From IMG/VR virus record IMGVR_UViG_3300042691_029887, positions 10,845 to 74,844 of that record: a DNA stretch of 64,000 nt, one strand, 5' to 3'. Positions 6,901 to 54,217 of the stretch are shown here, in pieces (position 1 is the stretch's first letter; every line of letters starts with the position of its first letter). The position numbers and the translations under genes are program-made. The notes below the pieces were generated by a model. It was not told where the DNA came from and did not search any database. It saw only the letters and a list, made by a program, of their open reading frames with translations. The stretch comes from a virus (lineage: Duplodnaviria; Heunggongvirae; Uroviricota; Caudoviricetes).

Positions 6901-7980
6901 TTATTCCTGTATTATGCCAAATTGTAGCCATTTGCCGGGAGACCCTGAAACAACACAGACCCACCCAATCGGCGAATTTGTCTGTGGATTTTCGTTCCAA
7001 ACTATGTCTCCTCTTTTATAGTTACCTTTATTTGGAGGAGAATTATCTACCATGAAAAGTTTTCCAGAAATTTTTATACTGCCTCGTATGTCTAAATCAA
7101 CTTCGGGATTTTTAACATTAATACCTACTTTCCCCCATACTCTTGTGGTGACGTCTTCTTTATATTCATTGCCAATAGTTAATACTCCTTTTGGCTCTAA
7201 AGTGATCAATGTAAGATCACCGACGGTTAAATCAAATGGTCTGTTATTAAAAGTTCCTATTCGAGCCCTACCATTATCTACATCAATATTCATGATAACA
7301 TCTTGTTCGATGTCACTGATAGTAATGGTACCTACTGGTTGTTCGGTATTGATAGCTATTCTTTGTTGATCAGAACTGAATCGCACAAATTCAGATAAGT
7401 TCACATCTCCAGTTACATTTAAACTGTGTAATGTGCCAACTTCTCTTAGGCTACTTTTTCTTATTGTAGATCCTAATGTATTTTTGTTTAGTACATCTAC
7501 ACCATCTATTTTGTAAGATTTTTCTGGCGGCAAATCAAAATTTTCTGTAGAAAAGAATCTATCTGGATTATTTTTAAAAACAAATAGTTTGGTATAGTCT
7601 CTACCCTTCCAAATCAATCCACTGCCGTTGGGATTAACAGAAACATCTATAGGCTGAAATTCCAGATACATTTTATCATATGTTCTATCTGAAACCAATT
7701 CTGTGACTTTTAATTTTTCTATTCTTAATTCACCAGTAACGTGAAGATTGCCTAGTAATTGTACATCACCGTCAATTCTTTTAGTTTCGATTATATCTAC
7801 TTCTATTTTATTGTCTTTAATAACTAAAGAAGTTTTAGTAGATTGATCAGATATTCCTGTACTGGAAAAGGAAGAGACGCAACCTCCGGAAATTAAATCT
7901 CCGGAGATTTCGCCATTATTGATGTTTAATTGATTAAACTTTATATTTTTTAATAATTCACTACTGTTAAATGCTGGCAT
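6901..7980 (-). CDS. hypothetical protein (beta-rich, possibly structural)
   Basis: 359 aa ORF, ATGA-coupled to clpP; no recognisable motif. Confidence 0.5.
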
Positions 7981-8566
7981 TTGGTCGTTTATCTACTATA
8001 TGATCCACTAGTCCGTAATCTAAGGACTCTTGTGCATTCATATACTTATCACGCTCCATATCCAAGCTCAGTTGATCAAAAGTTTTTTCTTTGCTGTTGT
8101 GTTTAACATAAATTCCTGTCAGCTCTTTTTTGATCTTTAGTATTTCTTCAACTTGAATCTGCATGTCTGTAGCCTGCCCTCGGGCACCACCACTAGGTTG
8201 ATGTATCATGTGTCGAGCATTAGGCAACATATATCGTTTTCCTGGAGTGCCTGATTGTGCTAACAAACTGCCCATACTACAGGCCTGTCCCATGACATAT
8301 GTACAGACATCAGGTTTAATGAATTGCATGGTATCATAGATACTCATACCTGCAGTAACTACTCCGCCAGGACTATTGATATACATGTGTATATCACCTT
8401 CCCCTTCACTTTCTAAGAACAGTAATTGCGCTACAATTAAATTAGCCATGTAATCTTCAACTTGTCCATTTAAAAAGATTACACGATCTTTCAATAGACG
8501 ACTATAGATATCATAGGAACGCTCACCTTGACTACTTTTTTCTACTACGATTGGTACTAAACTCAT
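7967..8566 (-). CDS. clpP: ATP-dependent Clp protease proteolytic subunit ClpP
   Basis: 199 aa; ClpP motifs INSPGG, catalytic Ser in GQACSMGS, His in MIHQP. Confidence 0.93.
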
Positions 8567-20363: not shown

Positions 20364-20882
20364 TTACAGTTCCTCGTCGGGTGGTTGAATTGGCATAGGT
20401 TTGCCAGTTGAACTCATTGTTGGCGAGCTAGGTGCTGCGAAACTTGAAGCTGCAGGCATCGAACTTGCCATTGGTGCTGACATACTAGGAGCAGTAGGAC
20501 TCTTATAACTCATATTGACTCCGCCAATACTAGCACTTGCACTGAAGCCGCCGCCTGATGGTGAACTGGGGGCTGGGGGTGGGGCTGATTTAGAAGCATT
20601 GTCTAATGCTTTAGCACGGAGATCTTTGTCATCACCAGCTAACATAATACCAGACAGTGTACCAGTTAAGAATGTGGCAATGGGAATAATAAGTTCGAAG
20701 AATTTATTGTCTACTGGACTCATCCCATTCATTGGCTGTGTTACAAATATAAGACTGTATAACACAACAAATACAATACCAAATAATGTTAGGCCTAATA
20801 TTAGACCAATAAAAAATTTCAATCTAGCATTTAGCTCTTCGGTGGTATATTTCTCACCTCTAAACAAACTATCTAGCATCAC
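20364..20882 (-). CDS. membrane protein with Ser/Pro/Ala-rich C-terminal tail
   Basis: 172 aa; two TM helices; low-complexity PPAPSSPSGGG...MSAPMASSMPAASS tail. Confidence 0.5.
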   Translation of the reverse strand: MMLDSLFRGEKYTTEELNARLKFFIGLILGLTLFGIVFVVLYSLIFVTQPMNGMSPVDNKFFELIIPIATFLTGTLSGIMLAGDDKDLRAKALDNASKSAPPPAPSSPSGGGFSASASIGGVNMSYKSPTAPSMSAPMASSMPAASSFAAPSSPTMSSTGKPMPIQPPDEEL

Positions 20883-21120
20883 AACCTCCTTTATTCGTGA
20901 TCTGCGGGCTTACTACTTGCTTAGTACTAGTCCCGGCAGTTTTATCTTTCTCATAATGTGTTAAATCCTCTGGGCAAGTGCCGTTAGCACTACAGTAAGG
21001 TTTTTGACATATTTTTTGTCCCCAATTTTCAGGGTCTTGGCAGGGATAGCGATAATTTTCATCACACCCTGTTAATAATAGTATAGCTGGCGCTAACCAT
21101 AGAAACCATTTTTTACTCAT
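20869..21120 (-). CDS. small Cys-rich lipoprotein
   Basis: 83 aa; lipobox LLTGC after a signal peptide; 8 Cys. Confidence 0.5.
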   Translation of the reverse strand: MSKKWFLWLAPAILLLTGCDENYRYPCQDPENWGQKICQKPYCSANGTCPEDLTHYEKDKTAGTSTKQVVSPQITNKGGCDAR

Positions 21121-21151: not shown

Positions 21152-21177
21152 ACAAAAAAGCCCAGAAAAACTGGGCT
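21152..21177 (-). terminator. intrinsic terminator (AGCCCAG-AAAAA-CTGGGCT + U-tract on the minus strand)
   Basis: 7-bp stem and TTTTTTG after the minus-strand gene ending at 21205. Confidence 0.7.
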
Positions 21178-21204
21178 TAGGTAAAACCTTATTAAATGCT
21201 ACTA

Positions 21205-21684
21205 TTACTTGGTTGCTAACGGATTATCTAATGCTTTTTGGATCTTGGTATCGATCTCTTTGCGCAACTGACGTATGTCCTGCTCAACTTCTCTAGACAT
21301 CTGCTTGTTACCACGCTCTACATCTTCGACTACCTTTTCTAATCTACGCAGATCAGTCTTGATATCGTTTTTAATATCTCTAGTATAATCATTAGTTTTG
21401 GCTGCAGATTCTTCTACTACTGTTAACCGCTTATCAAATTCAGATAGATCTGGCGCCACATATGTGGCTATTTTCTGCTTCATATCTTGATAACCTTTAT
21501 ATACTTCAAAAGCACCGTACAGCCCACCTAGTACTGATGAAATAATACCCCCAGCAATCATAAGTTTAGCAGGAGTGAAACTGTATCCTCCTATACTAAT
21601 TACTGTGTTGGCGCTAAGATATTTTTCTTTAGCTGCTTCTAACTCGTCAATCTGTTTGTTTACGTCTTTAATTTCTTCTCCCAT
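21205..21684 (-). CDS. membrane-anchored coiled-coil protein (tandem paralog A)
   Basis: 159 aa; shares EAAKEKYLSANTVISIGGYSFTPAKLMIAGGIISSVLGGLYGAFEVYK block with the neighbouring gene. Confidence 0.55.
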   Translation of the reverse strand: MGEEIKDVNKQIDELEAAKEKYLSANTVISIGGYSFTPAKLMIAGGIISSVLGGLYGAFEVYKGYQDMKQKIATYVAPDLSEFDKRLTVVEESAAKTNDYTRDIKNDIKTDLRRLEKVVEDVERGNKQMSREVEQDIRQLRKEIDTKIQKALDNPLATK

Positions 21685-21694
21685 TTTCCCCTCC

Positions 21695-22303
21695 TTAGTT
21701 AGACAATGGGTTGTCTAACGCTTTTTTAATTTTATCATCTACTTCTTTTCTCATGGCACGTATTTCAGCCTGAGTTTCTTTCTGATTTCTAGCCATCTCT
21801 TGATTGCTTCTGGCTATTTCTTGATTGATCTCTTTAACAGTTTGATCACTATATCTTCTAACTTCTTTAAGAGTACCGTCAACATCTCGTTTGATCTCCT
21901 TAACTGTTTGCTCAGTATCTCTTGCTGTCTGCTTGGAACTGCGCTCAGTATTTTCAACTACGTTTTCTAATCTGCGTACATCGTTCTTTAGATCGATTTT
22001 GATGTTGTCTGTATATTCTACCATCTTACTTGTATTGGCATCTAATACTTCCATCTTTTTATAGATCTCAGTTAAGTCAGGTGTAACATAATTTGCGATC
22101 TTGTCTTTCATATCCATGTAATCTTTATAGACTTCAAAAGCACCATATAAGCCACCTAATACTGTACTGACTATAGTGGCAGCGATCATTAACTTAGCCG
22201 GGGTAAAGGCATATCCACCAATACTGATCACAGTATTTTCGCTTAGATATTTTTCTTTAGCTACTTCTAATTCGTCTACTTTCTCGTCAATATTTTTTGA
22301 CAT
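21695..22303 (-). CDS. membrane-anchored coiled-coil protein (tandem paralog B)
   Basis: 202 aa; ~70% identical N-terminal half to 21205..21684, extended charged coiled-coil C-terminus. Confidence 0.55.
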   Translation of the reverse strand: MSKNIDEKVDELEVAKEKYLSENTVISIGGYAFTPAKLMIAATIVSTVLGGLYGAFEVYKDYMDMKDKIANYVTPDLTEIYKKMEVLDANTSKMVEYTDNIKIDLKNDVRRLENVVENTERSSKQTARDTEQTVKEIKRDVDGTLKEVRRYSDQTVKEINQEIARSNQEMARNQKETQAEIRAMRKEVDDKIKKALDNPLSN

Positions 22304-22527
22304 TTTAAAACTCCTAATTATTTTAGACCTTGTTCACGTCTAAGTTTTTCTGCCATTTTATGCATGGCTAATGCTTGAGCCGCCGTTGGCCCGTTATTAA
22401 CTGGTTGTTCTACTGTTCTAATCTCTTGCTTTGGCTCTTTATAATACCAAACTGCTACTGCTATTAAACACAGAACTTCTAACAAATAAAATACCATAAA
22501 AGATTCAAATAGTAATGTTGTTTCCAT

Positions 22528-25056
22528 TTATTTTTCCATTTTATATTGTTGATCTATCATCTCAGAGTGTAGTCTATCTGACCCTGTCATCAATCTTCTA
22601 CCAGAAGGTGTGTCAATATTTCTTTGACCTGGATATATTTCGAAAGGTCTATAACCTTGTGTATCTGGAAGCATCACTCTGCCATACGAATCAAAACCAG
22701 GCGTAAATCCCATAGCTTGTATGACCACATTTTGTACTGCTATTTGCGCTTCCATTGTGGCAGCTTCTCCCATTTTATTTGCTAATTGTTTGCCTTGTTC
22801 CACTGCCTTCTCTTTGGCAGCGGCTTCACGTTTTTCTTGTATCTCTTGTCGAGCAGTTTTAGGTTTATCTTTATCACCAGCATCAGATGATCCCGCTGAT
22901 CTAGTTGCTGGACCTTGACCCGAAGGCGCTACTTCAGTTTTAGCACCTTCCTTTTTCTTATCTTCTTTAGAAGACGCTGCCGCCATAGGCATTGCTGGCC
23001 CAGCAGTTGAACTTGGCGATTGTGAATTAGAATTAGATGGTGTTAGTTTTACGGTTGCTGTAGTGTCACTAGGAGATGCTGATGTTGCCTGTCTATCAAC
23101 TACACTATCTACACTGCTGTCACCAGTCTTAGAAATATTAGTTTCTACTTTACCTGAAGAACTAACAGCCACAGTTGGTTCTGATACTGACACTTTTGAA
23201 GATCCGCCAATTGATGCAGATTTGGTTGTGCTGTAACCTGGACACATAGTATTACTTTGAGGGTTCGATCCACAAGACGAGAGAGTTGTTGTATAACTTG
23301 GGCAGTATGTATACGTTAAAGAATTAGCTGTACAAGCATTATTAGCCGCAGTATATCCAGAACATAATGTATTACTCATTGGATTGGTAGAACAAGTATT
23401 CAATGCTGATTGATATCCAGGACAATAACTTTGACTCAGTGCATTAGCACTACAGGAAGCAGTAGCAGTTTGATATGTTGGACAAAGATTATTGAATAAT
23501 GGATCTGTAGAGCAATAGTTTAATTCTGTCTGATACGTTGGACAATAATTATATAAAAGTCCATTTGTTGCACATTGATTTACAGCAGTAGTGTAACCCG
23601 GGCAATATGCTGCATACAAAGGATTTGCATTACATTGAGTTGTCGCTGTCTGGTAGTTGGAACATTTAGAATCATATAATGGGTTGATAGAGCACTGTTG
23701 ATTAAGGTATGCTTGAGCATACCCAGGACAGCTAGGTGAATATAAAGGATTAGCATTACATTGTTGAGTCAAATAAGCAGCGGCATATCCAGGACATGAA
23801 GTATCGTAAAGAGCATTAGCTGTACATTGTTGTGTGAAAAATGCTTGGGCATATCCAGGACATGAAGTATCGTAAAGAGCATTAGCTGTACATTGTTGTG
23901 TGAAAAATGCTTGGGCATATCCAGGACATTGAGAGCTGGTTAAAGGATTTGTGTTACATATATCTGGAGTAAAATTGAAGCCCATATAAGGAGTTACGGC
24001 TGCTATACCACCTGTATACGTACTAATGCTGGCTGCACCTAGTGTAGAAATATCTCTGCTGGTACTACCTAATAATATTTCTCTTCGAAAACTTCCACTG
24101 ATATTTTGCCCAGAAGTATGATTACTGTCGGTCAATATAGTATTAGCATTGTTGTCTGTAATAGCTAAAGCACCGCCCACATAACTGTCAGACCAAGCAA
24201 AGCATATACCGATCAGACTGAATCCAGAACAGTAGTTACCACCTATATTATAGTCATATCCCCAATTCACACTGTGTACACGCACACCTGTATTACCAAA
24301 TCCTAGAGCTTGATTTATAGCGAACGTAGAACCGTAAACAGATGTTAAGTCTCCACTATACCACATGTCTGAATTACTATAACCAGCACAACTAGGACTG
24401 TATCTAGGATTTCCCGCACAAGGATCTACTGTATATTGCAAACCTATAGTTGGATTTCTAACTTGTGGTCCATAGTAGCCTGCCCAAAATCTTGCGTCCT
24501 TGCCAGTGAAAGAAAGTTCCAAGGTGGATAGATTCGCCAATGTATAATCTTGTGGAAACCACTGTGTGCCAGAGAAGTTTATAAACCCTCCGCTTTGTTG
24601 TGGATAGTTGTAGTTGTAGGTCTGGAGAGCATTTCCTACAGCATCTTTTAATACAACTTGACCTGTTAATGTTCCATATTGACCAGATGCTGGATCATTA
24701 TTGACACTCCAAGAATAATTATAACCACCAACTTGTATTCCAGTTCCTGATAATGCTTGATTAATAGCCATTGTTTGTGCAGTCGTAGCTGTTGTGTAAC
24801 CAAATATAATCGTATTTGTTGTCGGATTAAATGCAGGAGTATTTCCTCCAGAAAACCCACCATTTTGTCCTTGGACTGTCCCAGTCCAAGAATTTACTGT
24901 TGGATTTAATAAATTTGGTGTTGTTATATACGTTGAATTAGGAGATGGTTGTGTCCCTACTACTTGGGCATTAGAGTAAGAGAATGAGCAGAAGAATAGC
25001 ACTACCACTAATGCCCCAAAATGTTTTGCTATTCTTTTCATTGTTCTGCTCATCAA
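22528..25056 (-). CDS. large secreted Cys-repeat protein (~12 tandem CPGY-x-C-x-N-x-LY repeats; Lys/Glu-rich C-terminal region)
   Basis: 842 aa; signal peptide; repeats CPGYAQAFFTQQCTANALYDTS (x2 identical), CPGYAAAYLTQQCNANPLYSPS, etc.; Ser/Thr-rich linker; KE-rich segment. Confidence 0.7.
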   Translation of the reverse strand: MMSRTMKRIAKHFGALVVVLFFCSFSYSNAQVVGTQPSPNSTYITTPNLLNPTVNSWTGTVQGQNGGFSGGNTPAFNPTTNTIIFGYTTATTAQTMAINQALSGTGIQVGGYNYSWSVNNDPASGQYGTLTGQVVLKDAVGNALQTYNYNYPQQSGGFINFSGTQWFPQDYTLANLSTLELSFTGKDARFWAGYYGPQVRNPTIGLQYTVDPCAGNPRYSPSCAGYSNSDMWYSGDLTSVYGSTFAINQALGFGNTGVRVHSVNWGYDYNIGGNYCSGFSLIGICFAWSDSYVGGALAITDNNANTILTDSNHTSGQNISGSFRREILLGSTSRDISTLGAASISTYTGGIAAVTPYMGFNFTPDICNTNPLTSSQCPGYAQAFFTQQCTANALYDTSCPGYAQAFFTQQCTANALYDTSCPGYAAAYLTQQCNANPLYSPSCPGYAQAYLNQQCSINPLYDSKCSNYQTATTQCNANPLYAAYCPGYTTAVNQCATNGLLYNYCPTYQTELNYCSTDPLFNNLCPTYQTATASCSANALSQSYCPGYQSALNTCSTNPMSNTLCSGYTAANNACTANSLTYTYCPSYTTTLSSCGSNPQSNTMCPGYSTTKSASIGGSSKVSVSEPTVAVSSSGKVETNISKTGDSSVDSVVDRQATSASPSDTTATVKLTPSNSNSQSPSSTAGPAMPMAAASSKEDKKKEGAKTEVAPSGQGPATRSAGSSDAGDKDKPKTARQEIQEKREAAAKEKAVEQGKQLANKMGEAATMEAQIAVQNVVIQAMGFTPGFDSYGRVMLPDTQGYRPFEIYPGQRNIDTPSGRRLMTGSDRLHSEMIDQQYKMEK
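23785..23942. repeat. perfect 66-bp tandem duplication inside the Cys-repeat gene (plus older degenerate copies upstream to ~23200)
   Basis: catatccaggacatgaagtatcgtaaagagcattagctgtacattgttgtgtgaaaaatgcttggg occurs twice in tandem; encodes the identical CPGYAQAFFTQQCTANALYDTS units. Confidence 0.85.
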
Positions 25057-25614
25057 TTACTTTGGGTCTGAAGACTCTTTTCTTTCTTCAGACTTAGATG
25101 CTTCTTTTAAATCTACTGTTGGAGGTCTTACAGCATAATATCCAACATTGTCTTTCTTTTGATTGCTAACCACACCTCTTTTTTCCCATTCTTGTTTAGC
25201 TTGTTCACCAATCTTACCGTCAATTGGACAAGGCGTTCCAGCAGCCAACATGGCAGCGAACACTCGCTCATCCTGACATAGAGTAGCAACAGCCGCTACT
25301 TTCATGCCCATGTCAAATAAATTTTTACTAAGTTTGATTCTTTCGCAATTCATATCCCTCATGGTTCCGCCCATGCTGATACCAAGAATCTGCGTTTGCA
25401 CAGCACCTGATGCTGCCACAGCACAAACATCATTGTTTATGGTAGTAACTGCAGGTGCTACGGCTGTAGGTGGTGGAGATTTAACAGTAGTGGTACTGTT
25501 ATTTTCAGTGATGCTTCTAGATGTACTATCTGTTCTTATTGTGTTGTCTGTTGTTTGTGCAAGCACAGACAACGAGCTCGCTGCAAGAATCGCAGACACT
25601 ATAATTTTTTTCAT
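25057..25614 (-). CDS. secreted hypothetical protein
   Basis: 185 aa; signal peptide MKKIIVSAILAASSLSVLA; Thr-rich linker; ATG abuts the stop of the Cys-repeat gene. Confidence 0.5.
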   Translation of the reverse strand: MKKIIVSAILAASSLSVLAQTTDNTIRTDSTSRSITENNSTTTVKSPPPTAVAPAVTTINNDVCAVAASGAVQTQILGISMGGTMRDMNCERIKLSKNLFDMGMKVAAVATLCQDERVFAAMLAAGTPCPIDGKIGEQAKQEWEKRGVVSNQKKDNVGYYAVRPPTVDLKEASKSEERKESSDPK

Positions 25615-27157: not shown

Positions 27158-27841
27158 CTATTTACCAATTTCAGGGAACAGACAATCTTGTATGAATACA
27201 CGTACATCTTCCTCATTTAGCCCTAAACTAGCCATTACACGCGGTGTATGGGGGTTTTGCTTTTGATTGTATGCGTAGTAGTTTTGTTCTTCTTTAGTAT
27301 TGTTAGCAGTATTGTTAGTTTCGCCTACAGTTTCTAAATAGTGATTAATACTGTCTTTAGCAAACTGTACAATCTGATCTAGTTCTTCCTGCTTTTGCAC
27401 GTTACCTGCGGCTATCATACTTCCGCTAAAAATACGCTCTGCCCAATCAGGAAGTTTGCGTACTTTATTCCATTCTAGTTTCTGTGCTTCGTCCGCAAAG
27501 TAGTCTAGCATTGGATGTTCTTTATCGCCGCCTGGACTGTAGTCTATGAAACAGCCAGTAATTTTATTCTTGCCTGCGATAACATCGAACCCAAATATCG
27601 GTGCCGGATTATGTGTATGAGGGAAGACACAACAGTGCATCATCCACAAGCCTTTAGTCTCTCTAGCATCTACTACATCTATATGTGCTCTGCGATAATT
27701 ATCAGAAGTCCATACACGATTGACCCAACCAGGCTGATTGAATCTATCCATTCCTGGTTCTTGTGTTTCTACACCTGTGTTATTGAAACTCTCTTCCAGT
27801 AGTGTCTGTATTTGAATCAATGTATTCCAGACTTGGCTCAT
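27158..27841 (-). CDS. ferredoxin-dependent bilin reductase (PebA/PebS/PcyA family)
   Basis: 227 aa; FDBR signature LWMMHCCVFPHTHNPAPIFGFDVIAG...CFIDYSP (HxxxFP...PIFGxDxV...DxSP) and N-terminal W..RRAHIDVVDA block. Confidence 0.72.
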   Translation of the reverse strand: MSQVWNTLIQIQTLLEESFNNTGVETQEPGMDRFNQPGWVNRVWTSDNYRRAHIDVVDARETKGLWMMHCCVFPHTHNPAPIFGFDVIAGKNKITGCFIDYSPGGDKEHPMLDYFADEAQKLEWNKVRKLPDWAERIFSGSMIAAGNVQKQEELDQIVQFAKDSINHYLETVGETNNTANNTKEEQNYYAYNQKQNPHTPRVMASLGLNEEDVRVFIQDCLFPEIGK

Positions 27842-28379
27842 TATAAAGTTCCTTCATCATTTTAATTGCCCACTCAAAAGCCACACGAGCTTCGTCGCCA
27901 AGATCATCAGTTAGTTCAGATCTTATAGAAACTTTGAGTTCTTCTGGATTTTTAAAATCATAGAAGCGACCTTTTGAAATATGAGCTACTTGTTTCTTGA
28001 TTATCTGACCTCCGTATAAATCACCCATGTGTCTACAATACAAGTGTGCTTTTATTTTTGGTCTCTGTTGTGGATCACGTACTAGATCTAATAGATAATT
28101 GTAATACTCTAATGTTCCAGGCAACCATTTGTATTTGTGATCAACACCTGCGATTTCAATAAAATCTTGATAGATTTCATGAGTGCGTTCTAATCCTGGA
28201 AGTTTAGTAAAATTTCCTTCTACACGATTACCGAGTTCTATGATGTTGTAAATTAATACCATTTGATAAAGATAATTTGCATAATCTTCTTTATCTATTT
28301 TGCCACTTAATAAAAGTTTAGCAAACTTTGTAGTTTCTGCGTCATGATGAAGATCTTTTGTGATTTCTTTTAAGCTCAT
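27780..28379 (-). CDS. heme oxygenase
   Basis: 199 aa; HO N-terminal helix with proximal His (LKEITKDLHHDAETTKFAK), YxxxxxxY and GDLYGGQ-like motif (MGDLYGGQII). Confidence 0.75.
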   Translation of the reverse strand: MSLKEITKDLHHDAETTKFAKLLLSGKIDKEDYANYLYQMVLIYNIIELGNRVEGNFTKLPGLERTHEIYQDFIEIAGVDHKYKWLPGTLEYYNYLLDLVRDPQQRPKIKAHLYCRHMGDLYGGQIIKKQVAHISKGRFYDFKNPEELKVSIRSELTDDLGDEARVAFEWAIKMMKELYNEPSLEYIDSNTDTTGREFQ

Positions 28380-28382
28380 AAA

Positions 28383-28685
28383 TCATTCCGATTCAATTTT
28401 GACAGTTAATGGATGACCAGCGGCTCTTGCGATAGCAGTAGTTTCTATTCCTTTCTGCTCGGCGATTTCAAAAGGATAAACACCCACAACAGCAAACCCG
28501 TCGTTGTGAATTTTTAATGTTAAATTTTGACTGACTTCTTCATTGTGATGAAATATATTCACCAGAACTTCTATGACAAAATCCATAGGAGTTTTATCAT
28601 CATTTACAAAAATAACTTTAAACTTTCTTGGTTCTATGATATTAGTAGTAACGAGATTTTTTTGTTCAGTTGCTGTATCAGCCAT
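28383..28685 (-). CDS. clpS: ATP-dependent Clp protease adaptor ClpS
   Basis: 100 aa; NDDKTPMDFVIEVL...LKIHNDGFAVVGVY...AGHPL collinear with ClpS. Confidence 0.85.
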   Translation of the reverse strand: MADTATEQKNLVTTNIIEPRKFKVIFVNDDKTPMDFVIEVLVNIFHHNEEVSQNLTLKIHNDGFAVVGVYPFEIAEQKGIETTAIARAAGHPLTVKIESE

Positions 28686-28765
28686 TGCGTATCCTGTAAG
28701 TTGTTTGTTTTTATATTATACTAATATTGGGGGAAAGTTGCAAGAACACTCTCCCCCAATAATAT

Positions 28766-29209
28766 TTACTCAGAGTATTTGACGTCTATTCTTCTAGGCT
28801 TCAAAGATTCTGGAACGATCTTTTCTAGCCTAATAGTCAATACACCATTTTTCTGCTCAGCATCAACAACTTCAATATGATCGGCAAGTGGAAAATGACG
28901 CTTGAAATTACGCTGTGCAAGCCCACGATGGATAAAATTCTTTTCATCGCTATCGTCATTTCTTTCAGCTGTAATGATCAAGATATTTTGGTCAATCTCT
29001 ACACTGACTTCTTCTTTATTGAATCCAGTGACTGCTACTTGGATTTCGTACTTGTTTTCTTCCACTTTTACAACATTATGTGGAGGATAGTTGTTACTTA
29101 ATTGATTAGCAAAACGTCTTTCAAAATTATTAAAAACGTCGTCAAAACCAATAAGTGCTCTGTTTAGAGCGTTAAGTGCATTTGTATCAAATCTTACTAA
29201 TTGTGTCAT
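28766..29209 (-). CDS. small heat-shock protein Hsp20/IbpA family
   Basis: 147 aa; alpha-crystallin domain YEIQVAVTGFNKEEVSVEI...GVLTIRL; strong RBS AAAGGAGA. Confidence 0.85.
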   Translation of the reverse strand: MTQLVRFDTNALNALNRALIGFDDVFNNFERRFANQLSNNYPPHNVVKVEENKYEIQVAVTGFNKEEVSVEIDQNILIITAERNDDSDEKNFIHRGLAQRNFKRHFPLADHIEVVDAEQKNGVLTIRLEKIVPESLKPRRIDVKYSE

Positions 29210-29261
29210 TTTTTATCTCCTTTTAAAGTAAGAAAAAATTGAGCCCTATGACGGTGCTCGC

Positions 29262-31148
29262 TTATTCAGGCTTAGTTGCATCCTTAAATTCAGCCTCTAC
29301 AACATCACTCTGTTCTTTAGACTGATTTGTTTCAGAATTCATCTTGGCCTGTATCAAAGCTGAACTTGATTCTAAAAGTTCAGTCAGTGATTTGTTGATG
29401 GTTTCAACATCATCAAGTTTGACTTTTTCTTCTAAGTCTTTGATAGCATCTTCGATCTTAGTTTTTTCATCTACTGTGATCTTGTCACCATGTTCAGAAA
29501 GTTCTTTTTTAACAGTATGTAATTGACCTTCTGCGTTATTTCTAATATCAATAAGTTCTCGCTGTTTCTTATCTGATTCAGCATTTTCTTCTGCTTCACG
29601 AATCATATTTTGAATTTCAGCATCACTTAATCCACTATTTGCTTTAATAGTAATTTTATTTTCCTTGTTAGTCTTTTTATCTTTAGCACTAACACTTAAA
29701 ATACCGTTGGCATCAATGTCAAACGTAACCTCAATTTGAGGCATGCCACGTGGTGCTGGATCAATACCTTCTAGATTAAATTCACCTAGTATTTTGTTGT
29801 ATCGGAATAGTTCTCTTTCACCTTGACCAACTTTGATAGTAACAGCAGGTTGATTGTCGTCAGCGGTTGAAAACACCTGACTTGCTTTAGTTGGTATAGT
29901 TGTGTTTTTCTGAATCAACTTTGTAAAAACACCACCCATTGTTTCAATGCCCAAGCTCAATGGAGTAACATCCAATAATAGAACATCTTTACGATCACCG
30001 CCTAGAACAGCTCCTTGAACTGCTGCGCCAGCTGCCACTGCTTCATCCGGATTAACATCTTTACGTGGAGCCTTACCAAACAGTTTTTCAACTGCTTCTT
30101 GTACTTTAGGCATACGAGTTTGACCACCAACCAAGATAACTTCATCAATGTCATTAGCACTCACACCAGCATCTTTCATTGCGATCTTACAAGGTTCAAT
30201 AGAACGCTGGATAAGATCATCAACTAATGATTCTAGTTTTGATCTAGTTATTTTAATATTTAGATGTTTTGGTCCACTGGCATCTGCTGTGATGTATGGT
30301 AGATTAACTTCTGTTTGATTACTATTTGATAATTCAATTTTTGCTTTTTCAGCAGAATCTTTTAGCCTTTGTAGAGCTAATTGATCATTTTTTAGATCGA
30401 CTCCGTTTTCTTTCTTAAATTCATCAACCAAGTAATCCATAATACGTTGGTCAAAGTCTTCACCACCTAGGAATGTATCACCATTAGTGCTTAGAACTTC
30501 AATTTGTTTATCGCCATCTACATTAGCGATTTCAATAATACTTACATCAAATGTACCACCACCAAGGTCGTAAACAGCCACTTTGCGATCAGCTTTATCA
30601 TTTTTATCAACACCATAAGCAAGAGCTGCCGCAGTAGGCTCGTTAATAATACGGAGTACTTCTAGTCCTGCAATCTTACCTGCATCCTTAGTTGCTTGGC
30701 GCTGGCTGTCATTAAAGTACGCAGGAACAGTAATAACTGCTTGAGTAACTGTTGTCCCAAGATAGTCTTCGGCAGTTTTCTTCATCTTGCGAAGAACTTC
30801 TGCACTAATCTGAGGTGGGGCTAAATCTTTGTCATTAGCCTTAATCCAAGCATCACCATTAGATGCTTCCATAATTTGATATGGCATTAGATTAATGTCT
30901 TTTTGTACAGCATCTTCTTTGAACTTTCGTCCAATCAAACGCTTGGATGCATAAATCGTATTTTTAGGGTTAGTAACTGCTTGACGCTTTGCTGAGGCTC
31001 CAACTAGGACTTCGTCATTAGCGTAGGCAACAATACTGGGAGTAGTCCTAGCACCCTCGCTGTTTTCAATAATTTTAGGAATTCCGTTTTCGACGATAGC
31101 CACGCATGAATTGGTGGTGCCGAGGTCAATACCGATGATCTTTGACAT
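29262..31148 (-). CDS. dnaK: molecular chaperone DnaK (Hsp70)
   Basis: Start at [14 protein letters not shown]; Hsp70 signatures [27 protein letters not shown]; 628 aa. Confidence 0.97.
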
Positions 31149-31178
31149 ACATATCTCCTTATAAAGTAAGATCAATTT

Positions 31179-31195: not shown

Positions 31196-31236
31196 TTGCT
31201 GAATCCCATGATGGTAATCCAGCGAAATTTATTTAT

Positions 31237-31264
31237 ATCTAAAAGTGGGGAGTATCCTCCCCAC
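31237..31264 (-). terminator. intrinsic terminator (GTGGGGAG-TATC-CTCCCCAC + TTTT on the minus strand)
   Basis: 8-bp GC-rich stem downstream of the minus-strand ORF ending at 31346, upstream of the dnaK promoter region. Confidence 0.7.
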
Positions 31265-37647: not shown

Positions 37648-37884
37648 TCAATAATTTTTTGGGGGTAATTTGTTCTTTTCGAGCTTTTTAAGCCAACGTG
37701 CCCTTGCGGCACCAGCAGCTCTTTTGCGTCTTTCGCTGGGCTTTACATAGAACTGCTTTTCCATCAAATCTTGTAAAGTACCGTTCTCTTCGACTTTCTT
37801 TTTGAATTTTCGTAATGCTTTATTAAAATCTCCATCAACGTAAACAGTTGATCCTTGCAATTTATTCTCTTTAAATTTTGCCAT
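37648..37884 (-). CDS. rpsU: 30S ribosomal protein S21 (bS21) homolog
   Basis: Basic ~78 aa; [22 protein letters not shown]...[19 protein letters not shown] collinear with bS21; start may alternatively be 37911. Confidence 0.72.
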
Positions 37885-39091
37885 ATTCTTTCTTTTTATT
37901 GTCAAAGACAAATATTGGTAATCCTTGTTTGTTAACTGATTCTTTATTTACCAAAATCTTCTTTAAACCCTTTTTGGATAAATCCTGTGCTTCAAATTGA
38001 TAAGGTATTAATAGTTTTTCTATGGTAGTTCTCAAACCTCGAGCATTTGTTTTTGATACTATGCTAGATTCTACTATCTCTATCAACGCATCATCTTCAA
38101 ATTCTAGTTCGATACCATCTAATTCAAATAAAAATTTATATTGTGATATCAAGTTGTTTCTAGGCTCTATTAGTATTCTTACTAGGTCTTCTTTTTTAAG
38201 TTCTTCTACTGACGTTAGTATATTAAATCTGCCTACAAATTCCGGAATAAGTCCAAATTTAATTAAATCTTTTTGAGTTACTTTAGAGTAAATTTCATCG
38301 GAAGATGACAGCCCTCCTAAGTCACTATTAAATCCTATTGACGTAGGATTCAATCTCTGCCTAATAATGTTTTCTATTCCTATAAAACTACCACCAACAA
38401 TGAACAATATATTTTTGGTATCTACTTCGACTTCTTCTTTCTTCTTACCAAAAATCAAATTAACTATGGTTCCTTCGATCATCTTTAATAAAGACTGCTG
38501 TACACCTTCTCCACCAACATCTTTAACATTTGTATTGATATCACCTTTTTTACTAATCTTGTCTATTTCATCTATATAAATGATTCCGCGACTAGTAGCT
38601 TCAATGTCACCTTCAGCTCTTATCAAAAGTTGTTGGATAATATTTTCTACATCATCACCTACGTAACCTGCCTCAGTCAATGCTGTAGCATCGCAGTGTG
38701 CAAAAGGCACATCAATATATTCTGCAATTTTTTTGATCATTAATGTTTTCCCACATCCAGTAGGACCAATAATCATTACATTACTTTTATCTAAATCAAC
38801 ATAACTGGTTAAAGAAGTAATGCGTTTATAGTGTTGACTTACTCCAACTGACAATGCTATTTTTGCCTCATCTTGACCTATAACAAACTCATCAAGATAT
38901 TCTTTTATTTTAACAGGATTGAATTTTGATATGTCCTGCTCTTTAATTTTTCCGTTTTGCTCTTTTAAAATTTTATCACAGAGCTCCACACATTCATTAC
39001 AAATGGCGCCATTTTGTCCTACGACCATTTTTTCGACATCTTCTTTGCTCTTTCCGCAGAAATCACAGTTTTTAGTTTTCATCGTGCTCAA
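37871..39091 (-). CDS. clpX: ATP-dependent Clp protease ATP-binding subunit ClpX
   Basis: 406 aa; N-terminal C4 zinc finger CDFCGK...CNEC; Walker A GPTGCGKT; LIDEIDK; sensor/arginine-finger region. Confidence 0.93.
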
Positions 39092-49551: not shown

Positions 49552-50237
49552 TAAAGAAATTATTGAACACAGAAAAAATAATTAGTGAAACAATAGAAAA
49601 TACTCCTTGGCAATACAAAATAATCGATAATATCTTAGAAGAAAGTTTCTTCTTAAAATTAAAGAATTCAGTAGAAAAATTATCTCAAATTCAAAAAGAT
49701 GAAGATTTTTATTCTGATGGAATATGGCCCAATGAGTTTGAATCTTTCAATATTAATAAAGAACTATATGATTCAGTAGTACAATGTCAAAGTGAATTTT
49801 TATCTATCAAAAATGAGTTGTTCTCACAATTTGATTTCTATTTGCGATCAGAATTAGGATATTTTGGGATACCTAAAATTAATTATTCTATGAACAATTT
49901 AGATAGTGCTATCCATGACGAGGGTAAGACAAAATCTCTGGCATTGATCATTTATCTAAGTCCAGAAAAAACATTGGGAACAAGATTGTATGAACAGCAA
50001 TCTTCCGATTCATTAATAAAAGAAGTTGACTGGAAACCTAATAGAGGATTCCTAATGTGTAGTCAACCAGGAGTAACCTGGCATAGTTATAAAAACAATG
50101 GGTCTCCTAGATATACTCTTAATTTATACTGCGAAAAAATGGAAGGTTTAGAAAGTGTACGATCCAATTCTACTGTAGACAGATATGCTTGGTTCTTAAA
50201 TAACATGAACGATTTATCACTAGTCACATACGGTTAA
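49548..50237 (+). CDS. 2OG-Fe(II) oxygenase-like protein, paralog 1 of 3
   Basis: 229 aa; IHDEGKTKSLALIIYLSPEKTLGTRLY...WKPNRGFLMCSQPGVTWHSY shared with 53525..54217 and 54204..54965. Confidence 0.45.
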   Translation: MIKKLLNTEKIISETIENTPWQYKIIDNILEESFFLKLKNSVEKLSQIQKDEDFYSDGIWPNEFESFNINKELYDSVVQCQSEFLSIKNELFSQFDFYLRSELGYFGIPKINYSMNNLDSAIHDEGKTKSLALIIYLSPEKTLGTRLYEQQSSDSLIKEVDWKPNRGFLMCSQPGVTWHSYKNNGSPRYTLNLYCEKMEGLESVRSNSTVDRYAWFLNNMNDLSLVTYG

Positions 50238-50241
50238 AATT

Positions 50242-50943
50242 ATGAAAATTATAAAAACTATTGCACCCATCCCTATCGATGAATTAAAACAATTTTTCGT
50301 AGACAAAGATATAAAATTTGTAATTGATTATAAAAATAGTAAATTACAAGGAAGCAAACTTCTTATATATCTAAGTAATTTAGACATTCCCTGTGATATC
50401 GACATTGACGATGATCAAAATGCTGCATTTGAATTGTTAACTGAATATCTAAACAGTCACTTTTTAGTAAGCATTGAGCTCTTAGAAAAACTTGCTTTAG
50501 AAGCAGTATTATGTTACAAAAAGATATTAGTGAATCCTAATTTTGATAAATTTGTTGAAGATAATTTAGAAATTTTAGAAAGATGGTCTGATATTTTAAA
50601 CAGTTTAGCTCTTTATAATATCTCTACAGTATCAATACCTGAACTGAAAAAACAACTTAATCAATTTGAAGTAAACAATGATGATTCATCTAAAGGAATA
50701 AATTTTGTGAATCTTCTGAAACATGAAGTTTTTTATAATTTCTTTTCTTCTTTTGATAAGAGTAAATTAAAATATTATTCCAACTTCTTTGAAAACTCTG
50801 TTTTCAAAGGAAAAAATCTCTATCATTATTGGGCTAATGAAAACAACACTATGTTTATTTTAACATGGTCTATAGCAAATCCTAACATAGATCTGGATAA
50901 GTTTGATTCAATTTTTGAAACCATTCGTCAGAAAACTCAGTAG
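50242..50943 (+). CDS. hypothetical protein
   Basis: 233 aa. Confidence 0.45.
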   Translation: MKIIKTIAPIPIDELKQFFVDKDIKFVIDYKNSKLQGSKLLIYLSNLDIPCDIDIDDDQNAAFELLTEYLNSHFLVSIELLEKLALEAVLCYKKILVNPNFDKFVEDNLEILERWSDILNSLALYNISTVSIPELKKQLNQFEVNNDDSSKGINFVNLLKHEVFYNFFSSFDKSKLKYYSNFFENSVFKGKNLYHYWANENNTMFILTWSIANPNIDLDKFDSIFETIRQKTQ

Positions 50944-51547
50944 TTTTGTAATCACTAAACCAAGGACCTCCTAAGGTCCAATGAACTATTTTAGCATTTT
51001 TATTTGGACTATTAATTCCTACTAAATGATTCCACTCTGGTGGAATTTCTCCGATATCGCTATCATTTAACCATTTAAATTGATGTAGTTCTAAACCACT
51101 AGCGGTATTAATATAATCTAGAGTAAGGTTTCTACATTTATTATTGTTGAAGAGAATTAAACTACTCCAATTTTTTCTATCATAATAAGTCTGATAGTTG
51201 CCATTAAACTTTACATTATCTTTATATTGACATTTGTGTTTTACTACCATAGCAGAATACTGATCGTCATTTAAAGAAAATAATTCAAATATATCTGCTC
51301 TACACAACATATCAGAATCCATATATAAACTCCAACCTGAATAATCTGATAGATAAGGAACTAGCCACCTAGTAAATGCAGAATCAGTTGTTTGCAGTTT
51401 ATCTCTTTTTCTATATAATATATCATTGAGATCAGTTAGATTTAATAATGATATCTGTAAGTCTTTGGACGAGTTATTAATTATAGAATCAATCTGTATT
51501 CTAATATTTTTTTCGAATTGTTTATCATATCCTATAAAAATTTTCAT
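50882..51547 (-). CDS. GT-A fold glycosyltransferase (GT8-like, DxD motif)
   Basis: 221 aa; FTRWLVPYL...GWSLYMDSDML resembles the GT8 RL.IP.LL...YLDADII block. Confidence 0.5.
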   Translation of the reverse strand: MKIFIGYDKQFEKNIRIQIDSIINNSSKDLQISLLNLTDLNDILYRKRDKLQTTDSAFTRWLVPYLSDYSGWSLYMDSDMLCRADIFELFSLNDDQYSAMVVKHKCQYKDNVKFNGNYQTYYDRKNWSSLILFNNNKCRNLTLDYINTASGLELHQFKWLNDSDIGEIPPEWNHLVGINSPNKNAKIVHWTLGGPWFSDYKTTEFSDEWFQKLNQTYPDLC

Positions 51548-52359
51548 ATCTTAATCCATATATCATTTATCTTTTTAAATTTTATCCCTTTTATCTCACA
51601 TTCTTGGTTATTAAATTTTATACATTCACTTGGTAATAATTTTTTATTAATTTTCTTCCAATGCATTGAGTCATGAAAAGTTAAAAATGGTATTTCAAAT
51701 TTATCTAATATAGTTAAAAATTTTTCTTGTGCGAACAAAAATGGTCTATTCGTTGGAGAATTGGAGGATACTATATCACCGCAGTCTGTTTTATCTGTTA
51801 AATTTAAATACATGAATCTTGGTAATTTAGTTATTTTAAATAATGACAATAGTTCAATTACGCCATTTATTTCTTTGCATTTATAATCTAAAATAAACGG
51901 ATTAGCATCGATTCTTTTATCCCATACATATAGACCTTTTAATTCTTTCTGTGGAACCAAGTATGTTGAAACTAAAAATCTTGTTGTACCTGGATGAAAA
52001 GAATAAGAATTGTTAGTTTGTAATAATTGAAATAAAGATGTTAACCCATTATTTCTAATATCTTCTATTAACCAAGACAATTTAAGAAAAAGTTTGAGAT
52101 CCTGTAAATCATCATTCCATTGATCAATGTCAGTATCTAATACAAATTTATCAAGCTCAATTAAATCTTTATTTTCTAAATTTGATATTAAGATACTTAC
52201 AGACTTGATAACGTCAAAATCGATATAAGAAAAGGCAATTTCATTTGGTATTTCAAAATATATAAGTTTTGATTTGCCTTTATTTTTAAAAAATTTTCTT
52301 ATACTAATTATGTTTTTATAAAATACATTGATTTTTAATATTAATAAATCAATATTCAT
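51544..52359 (-). CDS. hypothetical protein
   Basis: 271 aa. Confidence 0.4.
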   Translation of the reverse strand: MNIDLLILKINVFYKNIISIRKFFKNKGKSKLIYFEIPNEIAFSYIDFDVIKSVSILISNLENKDLIELDKFVLDTDIDQWNDDLQDLKLFLKLSWLIEDIRNNGLTSLFQLLQTNNSYSFHPGTTRFLVSTYLVPQKELKGLYVWDKRIDANPFILDYKCKEINGVIELLSLFKITKLPRFMYLNLTDKTDCGDIVSSNSPTNRPFLFAQEKFLTILDKFEIPFLTFHDSMHWKKINKKLLPSECIKFNNQECEIKGIKFKKINDIWIKI

Positions 52360-52365
52360 GCAATT

Positions 52366-53478
52366 TTATTCTAATTCAAAAGGAGCTAATGAAATTAAAT
52401 GTCGATTATATTTTTTCTCTATCATAAAATATTCAACTAAAAACCCTCTAATATTTTCTTTATCTCTGGCACTCCAAAATTTATTGCCTTCTAATAAAGG
52501 ATATTTGTCCCTGCTAAGAAAACTATTCATTTCGGAATCTGATAAAACTCCTCTATGGCAGATATCTATTACTTCTTCAAATCGGGCACCAATATTTTCT
52601 ACGTAAGCGTCAATGAAATTGACTTGATCTTTTAACTGTTGAACCTGAGATGCGGTTAAAGATGTTATGTCCATAGGAGTATGAATTTCACCAACGCCTC
52701 CTAAAGATCTCCAAGCATTAGTTGATTTTAATGTATGCAATTGTGGATCATCAATCATCTCAAGCATATTTTCTAAGTTATATGATCTTAGATTCATTTG
52801 CTGTTGTGCCGGTTCGTAGAGTATTGATTCTTGGACCTGTCTCCATAATTCTTTTAATCTTTCCTCGGTGTATCGATTTATCATTAAATACATCAAAGAA
52901 CGAAGTTCTTCTTTATGTGATCCATTATAAAGATAAGACCCTATTAGATATTCAATACTTCTAAATCCAGAAACTGTGGATAGCATATCTGTTTTTTCTT
53001 GTTGCGTTACAGATATACTATCAAATACAGCTTGGAATTCTGCCTTACTAAACAGGAACTCTCTATACTGATCTTGAAGACCTTTTTCTGCCCGACCACC
53101 AATCAAAATTAGTTGATTAAAATATGCTAAGATTATTTTATAAGCAGCATCAGCACTGATATTAACAAAGATAGTCTTAAACCATTTAGAAGTTATATAC
53201 ATGAATGCTTCTTGATCACAGTAAATTACTATTTTAGAATCAGTGGAGTTGTTGTAATCAAAACAAAATTGCATCATATCTGTAAATGTTGGATAAACTC
53301 CATCAGATTTTATGATGTCATCAACGTTTTCCCCATAAGCAAACAGTCTACCAGAAAAAATATGAACAGCATTGTTGAGTATCTGAAATCCGTGATCCTT
53401 AGATATCACGATTCTGTCTAGATTTTTGTTGATAAATGAATCTATGCTTAGATAAGTCTTTTTAAATAAATGAAACAT
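52366..53478 (-). CDS. hypothetical protein
   Basis: 370 aa. Confidence 0.45.
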   Translation of the reverse strand: MFHLFKKTYLSIDSFINKNLDRIVISKDHGFQILNNAVHIFSGRLFAYGENVDDIIKSDGVYPTFTDMMQFCFDYNNSTDSKIVIYCDQEAFMYITSKWFKTIFVNISADAAYKIILAYFNQLILIGGRAEKGLQDQYREFLFSKAEFQAVFDSISVTQQEKTDMLSTVSGFRSIEYLIGSYLYNGSHKEELRSLMYLMINRYTEERLKELWRQVQESILYEPAQQQMNLRSYNLENMLEMIDDPQLHTLKSTNAWRSLGGVGEIHTPMDITSLTASQVQQLKDQVNFIDAYVENIGARFEEVIDICHRGVLSDSEMNSFLSRDKYPLLEGNKFWSARDKENIRGFLVEYFMIEKKYNRHLISLAPFELE

Positions 53479-53524
53479 TGGGGTCTCCGTATCCTATTGT
53501 AGTGTATTTATTACTTGAGATTCG

Positions 53525-54217
53525 TCAGTATTTGTTTGTAGTTAAGTGGTTTTTTCCGATTTGGTCCAGTAACCATAACATGCTCTCAAAATTATCGTTT
53601 TCTGCTGACTTTGTCATGGATTTCTCCATACATTCGATTTTTTCGCAGAAAATGTTCAAAGTTACTCTGGGTTCCCCATTAGTATTTTTCCATGTGTGCC
53701 ACGTTTCGTCATTGTTCCCATTTGGGCAAATTATTAAAGCTCTGTTTGGTTTCCATTCTATTTCTTTATGAAAATCAGATTCTTGTTGCCCTGTATATAA
53801 TCTAGTTCCTCGCTCAATTTCGGGTTCCAAATATATTACAATCAGCAAAACTTTATGACTGCTTTCTGAATGTATAGGATACATAAAATTTTTACCGCTT
53901 ACACCAAATTTTGGTAAAGAATAATAGCCGTGTAAAGATTTATTAGTAGTCGAGAATCCTGCTAGTATATCATCAATATTGTCTAAAATTTGATCTGTAA
54001 AATTGATTATACTGTCGACACAGTCCTGCTTTACCCCTAAAGTTAATGCTTCATTAATCCAGATGGGATTAGTTTTGCCATCGATGGTATATTTGGTCAG
54101 AAACTTCGCTGCTTCCTGAACTTTTTTAAAAACTTGGTCAGGCAATATATCGTCTACTACTTTATGTTCCCAAGGGTCGAGCAATATCGGTGAATTTATA
54201 ATTTTATCTATCGTCAT
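53525..54217 (-). CDS. 2OG-Fe(II) oxygenase-like protein, paralog 2 of 3
   Basis: 230 aa; IHSESSHKVLLIVIYLEPEIERGTRLY...WKPNRALIICP...TWHTW. Confidence 0.45.
   Translation of the reverse strand: MTIDKIINSPILLDPWEHKVVDDILPDQVFKKVQEAAKFLTKYTIDGKTNPIWINEALTLGVKQDCVDSIINFTDQILDNIDDILAGFSTTNKSLHGYYSLPKFGVSGKNFMYPIHSESSHKVLLIVIYLEPEIERGTRLYTGQQESDFHKEIEWKPNRALIICPNGNNDETWHTWKNTNGEPRVTLNIFCEKIECMEKSMTKSAENDNFESMLWLLDQIGKNHLTTNKY

Follow-up and report, generated by a model that had tools for sequence, protein, structure and literature searches.

Several tailed phages encode exported or membrane proteins that act on the envelope of the infected cell, such as T5 Llp, Cor of phi80 and N15, T4 Imm and Sp, and T4 RI-T, and such proteins are often encoded beside tail-fibre or lysis genes. 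The gene that is the subject of the present analysis, designated B, is comparable to them in logic only. It is located at positions 22528-25056 on the minus strand (-) of a 64,000-nucleotide stretch of DNA, hereafter the window, which represents positions 10,845 to 74,844 of the IMG/VR virus record IMGVR_UViG_3300042691_029887 (Caudoviricetes), and its longest open reading frame (ORF) encodes a modular, putatively exported protein of 842 amino acids (aa). To our knowledge, the phage proteins named above are all small and unrelated to B in sequence, and none of them has a lectin head, a repeat stalk or a counterpart of the trio of genes A, B and D to which B belongs.

B is composed of a signal peptide, two head domains, a stalk of cysteine repeats, a linker and a conserved C-terminal domain. 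The heads are of a known fold class, and the stalk repeat and the three-gene module are absent from the libraries and literature searched; the B family is large and restricted to phages, and it has neither a name nor a Pfam model nor a solved relative. From our point of view, B could well be an envelope-located stalked lectin of an accessory phage envelope module that serves receptor masking, superinfection exclusion or the protection of progeny, a reading that we favour but put forward tentatively. The features of the gene cluster around B that are described below all lie on the minus strand (-) as well.

Signal peptide and head domains

The length of 842 aa is counted from the first TTG, whereas public gene calls on the identical sequence use ATG starts 3 or 15 nt downstream and thus yield proteins of 841 or 837 aa; the probable start is the ATG at 25053 or 25041. 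The N-terminus, MKRIAKHFGALVVVLFFCSFSYSNA followed by Q, is laid out in n, h and c regions like a Sec-type signal peptide (aa 1-30, 24967-25056; read from the sequence), with predicted cleavage between SNA and Q. A signal peptide had already been proposed in a preliminary description of the locus, and this proposal is strengthened by the conservation of Ala30 and Gln31, each of which is kept in 90% or more of 77 aligned homologues. A simple screen for a hydrophobic run at the N-terminus was further passed by 100 of the 135 other Met-starting hits of the repeat search described below. The mature protein contains 28 cysteines, and this even number together with the signal peptide points to export and to oxidative folding in the periplasm.

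The region that follows had been described as rich in Ser, Thr and Gly, but it is not of low complexity, as aa ~40-365 form two folded beta-sandwiches in an AlphaFold2 model built with the 77-sequence alignment (predicted local distance difference test, pLDDT, ~90 for both). Head domain 1 (aa ~40-212, 24421-24939), supported by AlphaFold2, Foldseek and phmmer, carries the motif SFTGKDARFWAGYYGPQVRN, which is of the type found in F-box-associated (FBA) domains. Head domain 2 (aa ~226-365, 23962-24381) contains a Cys276-Cys285 pair and is a paralogue of domain 1 (hhalign 97.6%). Between the two heads lies a lone loop motif, DPC213AGNPRYSPSC223AGY (24379-24426), where the hidden Markov model of the stalk repeat touches aa 212-228.

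The beta-sandwich fold of the heads is shared with the FBA domain of Fbs1/FBXO2, FBXO6 and FBXO44 and with bacterial carbohydrate-binding modules (CBMs) such as the CBM22 tandem (E 2e-7 to 1e-5, TM-score ~0.6 on the target). In a Foldseek search of the PDB, the heads matched the CBM22 tandem 4xup (2.3e-7) and could be superposed on the sugar-binding domain of Fbs1/FBXO2/FBXO6 (~1e-5; 6.6e-6 for 1umh, with a TM-score of 0.60 on the target), and further matches comprised an alginate CBM and receptor-binding tips of phages; the entries 8zuh and 8zqf are likewise among the matches to the fold. With phmmer, the sole PDB matches of head 1 were FBXO6, FBXO44 and FBXO2, with which it has the motif GKDxxFWAGxYGPxV in common; in the alignment, SFTGKDARFWAGYYGPQVRN of head 1 stands opposite GGKDTQFWAGWYGPRVTN of FBXO6, and the C-terminal strand motif of FBA domains, G-x-D-x2-[FY]-W-A-G-x-Y-G-P-x-V, is present in head 1. 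B differs from the FBA proteins in that it is phage-encoded, lacks an F-box, has duplicated heads and is predicted to be exported, and no match to FBA (PF04300) or a related CBM was obtained for it with hmmscan against Pfam-A at E<=1. Judging from the modelled fold, the heads thus represent a lectin-like pair of the CBM/FBA type, for which glycan binding is predicted.

Of the folded parts of the family, head 2 varies most (37% mean identity), and a comparison of strains revealed a hypervariable patch within it (aa ~274-337, 24046-24237). The window and the contig L022 are 99.0% identical over 14 kb, and 72 of their 142 differing columns (51%) are found within 24000-24249 (aa ~270-352), around the Cys276-Cys285 loop. 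With its sharp borders, its small indels and substitutions of all classes, the patch looks like the result of cassette exchange at a binding surface and not of retroelement mutagenesis. A diversity-generating retroelement as its source was rejected on account of the indels and of the presence of all substitution types, which are thus not confined to adenine-templated positions; a template repeat or reverse transcriptase was not searched for. Two smaller clusters of strain differences, with 15 sites at 30500-30749 and 12 sites at 27250-27499 against a background of ~1 per 250 bp, are situated within dnaK and a bilin reductase gene.

In some family members, the beta-sandwich heads are replaced or supplemented by an alternative head of ~200 aa with the motif DDGY..VPL.F.FPFYG..F (P0027, P0036 and P0044, as well as L014 7593-9734 and L016 7236-9341), which suggests an exchange of heads while stalk and base stay the same. 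The alternative head had no match in Pfam, so that a likeness to the NIDO domain found no support there.

In BFVD, the best matches of the heads were two uncharacterised family members labelled 'uncultured Caudovirales', followed by many tail-fibre, minor-tail and CBM proteins. Together with the hypervariable patch and the likeness to CBM and FBA beta-sandwiches, this resemblance to fibre tips is in line with the binding-type head that the preliminary description had implied by suggesting that B could be a protein of the host-recognition type.

The cysteine-repeat stalk, the linker and the C-terminal domain

A nine-residue spacing of cysteines is also found in the twin Cx9C (CHCH) proteins, for example NDUFS5, which resemble B in their short helices and in folding oxidatively outside the cytoplasm, as is assumed for B. 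In CHCH proteins, however, the Cx9C motif is part of a helix, and a pair of such helices is held as a hairpin by two disulfides, whereas in B each loop is predicted to be closed on itself and 12 of them follow in a row without a fold match; an arrangement of Cx9C in two antiparallel helices joined by two disulfides was not found in the stalk. EGF-like repeats, the cysteine-rich domains of TNFR and the beetle antifreeze beta-helix likewise consist of short, disulfide-locked tandem units that build an extended and stable extracellular rod, but they differ from the stalk of B in cysteine pattern, consensus and predicted helix-loop structure.

The stalk (aa 366-608, 23233-23961) consists of 12 C-x9-C loops that alternate with 11 short helices, which agrees with the ~12 tandem two-cysteine repeats of 20-22 aa reported in the preliminary description. 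Its 24 cysteines (Cys367, 377, 389 ... 605) are spaced 10 or 12 residues apart, and a leading loop is followed by four units of 22 aa and seven units of 20 aa. In 20,000 shuffles of aa 361-612 the longest comparable run was 5. Among the 77 homologues, the loop consensus is C-[ST]-x-N-P-L-Y-x3-C, followed by P-G-Y-A-x-A-Y-x2-Q-Q in units of the 22-aa type or P-x-Y-Q-T-A-x3 in those of the 20-aa type. AlphaFold2 models aa 366-600 of the full protein as alternating helices and loops (pLDDT 80-90) and reaches a pLDDT of 92.6 for the array alone. Arrays of 2 to 20 units occur across the family; their helix segments are of type x7, x9 or x11, and the loop is x9 in almost all units and rarely x8. The number of array cysteines is even in all homologues examined (4 to 40), and some relatives have a disordered or acidic linker in place of the array.

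Given the isolated loop after head 1 and the fact that the array both begins and ends with a loop, loop-closing disulfides represent the only nearest-neighbour scheme that leaves no cysteine unpaired. We infer, also from the even cysteine counts and the near-constant loop length, that each C-x9-C loop is shut by its own disulfide; with the Cys276-Cys285 pair of head 2 added, mature B would then have 14 pairs and no free cysteine.

The stalk has no counterpart among catalogued cysteine-rich repeat models or solved repeat structures: B matched no family in Pfam, PHROG, NCBIfam or PADLOC, a search of PDB folds with the array returned nothing, and an array profile run against all PDB sequences gave weak compositional matches only (SRCR segments; NDUFS5, E 0.009). 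When the same profile was run exhaustively with HMMER against 1.84 billion representative proteins, 433 clusters were obtained, of which 317 had E<=1e-10. Among the 145 new matches listed from this search, 128 contained the C-terminal domain of the B family and the other 17 were fragments or had divergent tails; the heads were of either the beta-sandwich or the DDGY..VPL.F.FPFYG type. Since the matches mostly carry the C-terminal domain, the repeat is specific to the B family. As far as the searched libraries go, it is a new type of repeat, as its earlier listing as unrecognised had anticipated, and the models predict a new disulfide-locked fold.

The first two 22-aa units (aa 377-398 and 399-420; 23797-23928) are exactly identical at the DNA level, 66 of 66 positions being the same between 23863-23928 and 23797-23862, whereas the third and fourth units are identical to this pair at just 41-46 of 66 positions. 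The perfect duplication noted earlier is hence real in its identity, but its position, given as 23785-23942, needs correction: the units span 23797-23928, exact identity at an offset of 66 extends over 23782-23929, and Tandem Repeats Finder reports 2.7 copies at 23749-23929. In two contigs from other samples, L022 and L023, both copies are present and again exactly identical, and L021, which is otherwise 99.8-100% identical to the window over 10 kb, has a single copy and encodes a protein of 815 aa. The other family members that were examined contain no perfect duplicate unit.

One could object that the second copy is an artefact of assembly and not a recent expansion, because short-read assemblers can mishandle tandem repeats and the same-strain contig with one copy, L021, is of MEGAHIT style. 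However, the window, L022 and L023, three assemblies made independently from different samples, all have the two-copy form, and both forms keep the reading frame and the repeat register, so that we regard an artefact as highly unlikely. With one copy in L021 and two in the other contigs, the duplication is recent and polymorphic, the residual caveat being a collapse of the repeat during assembly of L021. The ongoing repeat expansion suggested earlier is thus borne out by a one-unit polymorphism between near-identical strains and by arrays of 4 to 40 cysteines across the family. As its length changes by the gain and loss of units, the stalk is a candidate molecular ruler.

The stalk is connected to the C-terminus by a linker (aa 609-732, 22861-23232) that is rich first in Ser, Thr and Pro and then in Lys and Glu, much as had been described before; it is predicted to be disordered (pLDDT <50) and shows 28% mean identity across the family. 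The conserved C-terminal domain of ~110 aa (aa 733-842, 22531-22860), which had not been singled out earlier, is the best-conserved part of B with 60% mean identity and is common to B and gp53 of phage HTVC115P. A word-indexed search with this domain alone returned only short fragments at contig ends and no new architectures.

Distribution of the B family and linkage to genes A and D

Among 8,000 scored candidates (clusters at 90% identity), more than 3,000 are relatives of B at E<=1e-3, all of them unnamed and none with a Pfam domain. Their genes are found on IMG/VR viral contigs and also on contigs from metagenomes, the longest of 359 kb, which carry T4-like and pelagimyophage-like genes (ribosomal protein S21, RNase H, T4 DsbA, SegE and ribonucleotide reductase). 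A profile scan of a collection with one genome for each of 185,579 bacterial and archaeal species returned seven loci, all on contigs of metagenome-assembled genomes; as these contigs are mostly short and are assigned to unrelated taxa, they are probably mis-binned phage DNA. The family is restricted to phages, with no chromosomal copies in bacteria. In 50,697 phage records (INPHARED), full-length B had no tblastn match. One entry that could be mistaken for a disulfide enzyme, PF11126 'Phage_DsbA' in L008, is the dsDNA-binding protein of T4 and has no bearing on disulfide formation.

B is linked to two further genes. Directly upstream, gene A (25057-25614) encodes an exported protein of 185 aa with a conserved 4-Cys domain (C-x25-C-x22-C-x16-C; phrog_20531). 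Downstream of B follow gene C (22318-22527), which encodes a single-pass membrane protein of 69 aa, gene D1 (21695-22303), whose product crosses the membrane once, has a long coiled coil and carries the motif DNPL at its C-terminus, and its tandem paralogue D2 (21205-21684), the product of which is built in the same way; a terminator-like hairpin (21158-21178) ends the A-B-C-D1-D2 unit. In 13 divergent freshwater and marine loci, the order A-B-(0-3 small ORFs, often encoding membrane proteins)-D is kept wherever the contig reaches far enough. A is located upstream of B, adjacent or at most two genes away, in 12 of the loci, the 13th contig starting at B, and a D homologue is found downstream in 11, the other two contigs ending at B.

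A is more conserved than B (70-90% versus 40-60% identity) and its family comprises at least 8,000 clusters at 90% identity, with homologues in cultured Pelagibacter, Roseobacter and Ralstonia phages. It is 60-80% identical to proteins of the cultured Pelagibacter phages HTVC115P, HTVC023P, HTVC033P, HTVC202P, Baldr and Mosig. The C-terminal (D/E/K)NPL of D is kept as far as the homologues in Pelagibacter and Roseobacter phages; NPL also occurs in the stalk loops of B, which may be a coincidence or a binding motif shared with D. In the Roseobacter phage CRP-810 (L012, OR671924.1), gp51 is labelled 'lysozyme' and is a homologue of the coiled-coil membrane protein D, the label probably being an annotation error.

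The module occurs in podoviruses and myoviruses. Among cultured phages, the Pelagibacter podovirus HTVC115P (L009, MN698247.1) has a distant version of the module: the C-terminus of its gp53 is homologous to the C-terminal domain of B (hhalign 95.5%, E 1.5e-8) and its genes run gp54 (A), gp53 (B-like), ..., gp49 (D). Like B, gp53 has a head, a low-complexity linker, a Lys-rich stretch and the C-terminal domain, but it has an acidic linker in place of the cysteine stalk and a different head, and it is annotated without a signal peptide. The gp53 start is probably annotated too far downstream, and an upstream in-frame start gives the signal peptide MIKSKSLSIILSLWLLLLLLLVSPSKA. Downstream of the module, gp46-gp47 (511-3024 of L009) encode a 685-aa protein rich in Gln, Asn and Ala and a toxin-activating lysine acyltransferase of the HlyC type, which hints at an acylated, membrane-active phage protein. 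In the myophage Mosig, the A and D homologues flank Mosig_00201, which has a signal peptide; with an hhalign value of 6.8% it was rejected as a B homologue and is a positional analogue only.

In HTVC115P and in CRP-810 the module follows tail-fibre genes in a late operon, and this position would suit a virion-associated fibre or adhesin, the function suggested in the preliminary description; in a variant of this idea, maturation would take place in the periplasm and the protein would be added to particles only at lysis. The likeness of the heads to the tips of tail fibres, tailspikes and host-specificity proteins is in favour of such a function as well, as are the strain-level hypervariable patch, which is reminiscent of the exchange of receptor-binding tips, and the heavy disulfide cross-linking, which suits extracellular life. 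However, tailed-phage particles assemble in the cytoplasm, whereas B has a conserved Sec signal peptide and cysteines that need an oxidising compartment. B also matches no structural PHROG family and, as stated, nothing in the phage records searched with tblastn, its fold matches to fibre tips are of a generic beta-sandwich kind, its constant partners are membrane or periplasmic proteins, and one and the same module is used by podoviruses and myoviruses. In the window, moreover, the gene is placed among chaperone and auxiliary genes and not in a structural module. Because of the signal peptide and the cysteines, the membrane or periplasmic partners, the non-structural neighbourhood and the occurrence in both podoviruses and myoviruses, we rank an envelope location above a virion fibre and consider the latter improbable.

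To the best of our search, the literature contains no description of the B family or of the A-B-D module, and no virion proteomics bearing on the family was found there either. Since a distant module is present in HTVC115P and A homologues are present in five further cultured SAR11 phages, the function of the module is accessible to experiment.

Possible functions in the host envelope and surrounding genes

In the envelope reading that we favour, the Sec pathway would export B to the periplasm of a Gram-negative host, and the 14 cysteine pairs would become oxidised there. B would have the build of a stalked lectin, with two heads, a presumably rigid stalk whose length changes through the gain or loss of 20-22-aa units, a flexible linker of Ser/Thr/Pro- and Lys/Glu-rich segments and the conserved C-terminal domain, which might dock B to the exported 4-Cys protein A and/or the inner-membrane coiled-coil protein D. 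The heads might bind a variable envelope glycan, that is, lipopolysaccharide, capsule or peptidoglycan, and the purpose would be to alter how the envelope of the infected cell meets phages. The likeliest roles would be masking of receptors, exclusion of superinfecting phages and keeping progeny from sticking to debris. If the heads do bind envelope glycans and diversify at the strain level, B would represent a new player in the competition between phages and hosts, and among phages, in lakes and oceans.

Several points weigh against this proposal. Neither experiment nor homology links any family member to a function, and the superinfection-exclusion proteins known to us are small and none is like B. 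CBM-like beta-sandwiches are ubiquitous and are no proof of glycan binding, and the route by which a periplasmic protein would get to surface receptors is unexplained. The C-terminal domain, to which docking is ascribed, is helical in a low-confidence AlphaFold2 model. The late-operon position of the HTVC115P module directly after tail-fibre-like genes is also compatible with a virion role, and the holin or endolysin genes that adjoin the module in several lineages favour a role in lysis.

A function in lysis control or envelope disruption is indeed a serious rival, both for the topology of D and for these neighbours. In this scenario, D would be a class III holin like T of T4 or an i-spanin-like protein, and A and B would assist it from the periplasm in timing or completing lysis, either as an antiholin-like sensor or as a bridge to the wall or the outer membrane. 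Hydropathy and sequence give D1 and D2 one N-terminal membrane segment and a periplasmic coiled coil. T4 holin T and i-spanins share this topology, in which a short N-terminus in the cytoplasm is followed by a single membrane segment and a periplasmic part, of ~100-140 aa in D2 and D1. In the window, D is followed by gene E (20869-21120), which encodes a Cys-rich lipoprotein of 83 aa with the lipobox LLTGC, and by gene F (20364-20882), which encodes a protein of 172 aa with two membrane segments and a Ser/Pro-rich tail and is conserved together with E; a second hairpin is located downstream of F. Elsewhere, a holin of the family GTA_holin_3TM adjoins the A homologue in the Pelagibacter myophage Mosig, the podovirus MW202481 has a 3TM-holin-like gene and a T4-type lysozyme after the module, and L014 has a GH19-like endolysin, recognised by eye from a sequence motif, 0.4 kb downstream of D.

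The association with lysis genes is, however, inconsistent across lineages. E is conserved only in some relatives and lacks a lipobox there (homologues in L003 and L008), and no ORF for an o-spanin lipoprotein was found inside or beside D in the other loci searched, HTVC115P and Mosig included. D matched no holin or spanin family, PADLOC returned coiled-coil noise only, and the endolysin-like ORF of the window is 18 kb away from the module. Lysis control would also leave the hypervariable lectin-like head and the variable length of the stalk unexplained. We therefore deem it unlikely, if deserving of attention.

The module of the window is surrounded by auxiliary genes, encoding DnaK, Hsp20, ClpS, haem oxygenase, bilin reductase, ClpX, a ClpP-like protease, GMP reductase and UvdE. 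This neighbourhood would be in line with a function in host physiology, in which B, as an exported lectin or adhesin, captures polysaccharide nutrients or sticks infected cells to particles or sibling cells, by analogy with the PstS, porin and curli genes that aquatic myophages carry. PstS-like and porin genes are located near the module in relatives (L006), and pelagimyophages are reported to carry curli secretion genes, for which an aggregation hypothesis has been proposed (PMC7029224). Among the window ORFs scanned, however, neither CsgG nor CsgF was found, B has no evident route across the outer membrane, and nutrient capture would lead one to expect neither the strict linkage to A and D nor a strain-level diversification of the head. 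Such an auxiliary function hence seems very unlikely to us.

One could finally speculate that A, B and D form a previously unrecognised and categorically new phage-built apparatus in the host envelope, in which the stalk, with its new disulfide-stapled fold, would keep a rapidly diversifying lectin head a fixed way off the inner membrane, although we see only a small chance that this is so. If true, the apparatus would be found in aquatic phages that are among the most abundant, namely relatives of SAR11, Roseobacter and freshwater phages. In the boldest version of this idea, a fibre matured in the periplasm would join the particles at lysis, and virions would thereby gain an oxidatively folded receptor-binding appendage that the cytoplasm cannot make.

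Some observations concern the surroundings of the module. The chaperone and protease genes (DnaK, Hsp20, ClpS, ClpX and ClpP-like) and those for haem oxygenase and a ferredoxin-dependent bilin reductase are located at 27158-31175 (-), 37871-39091 and 7967-8566; the ORFs of the latter two enzymes share 62 nt, and the chaperone/bilin block is syntenic in relatives on contigs of up to 359 kb. The T4 late-promoter-like motif TATAAATA occurs once in the 64 kb, at 31230-31237 (-) just upstream of dnaK, and neither A nor B is preceded by it; with one copy versus ~8.6 expected by chance it is depleted in the window. At ~50000-60000, a block of low G+C content (27-31% versus ~36% elsewhere) is encoded on the opposite strand and includes a radical-SAM protein at 56026-57645; it may represent an acquired sugar or modification island.

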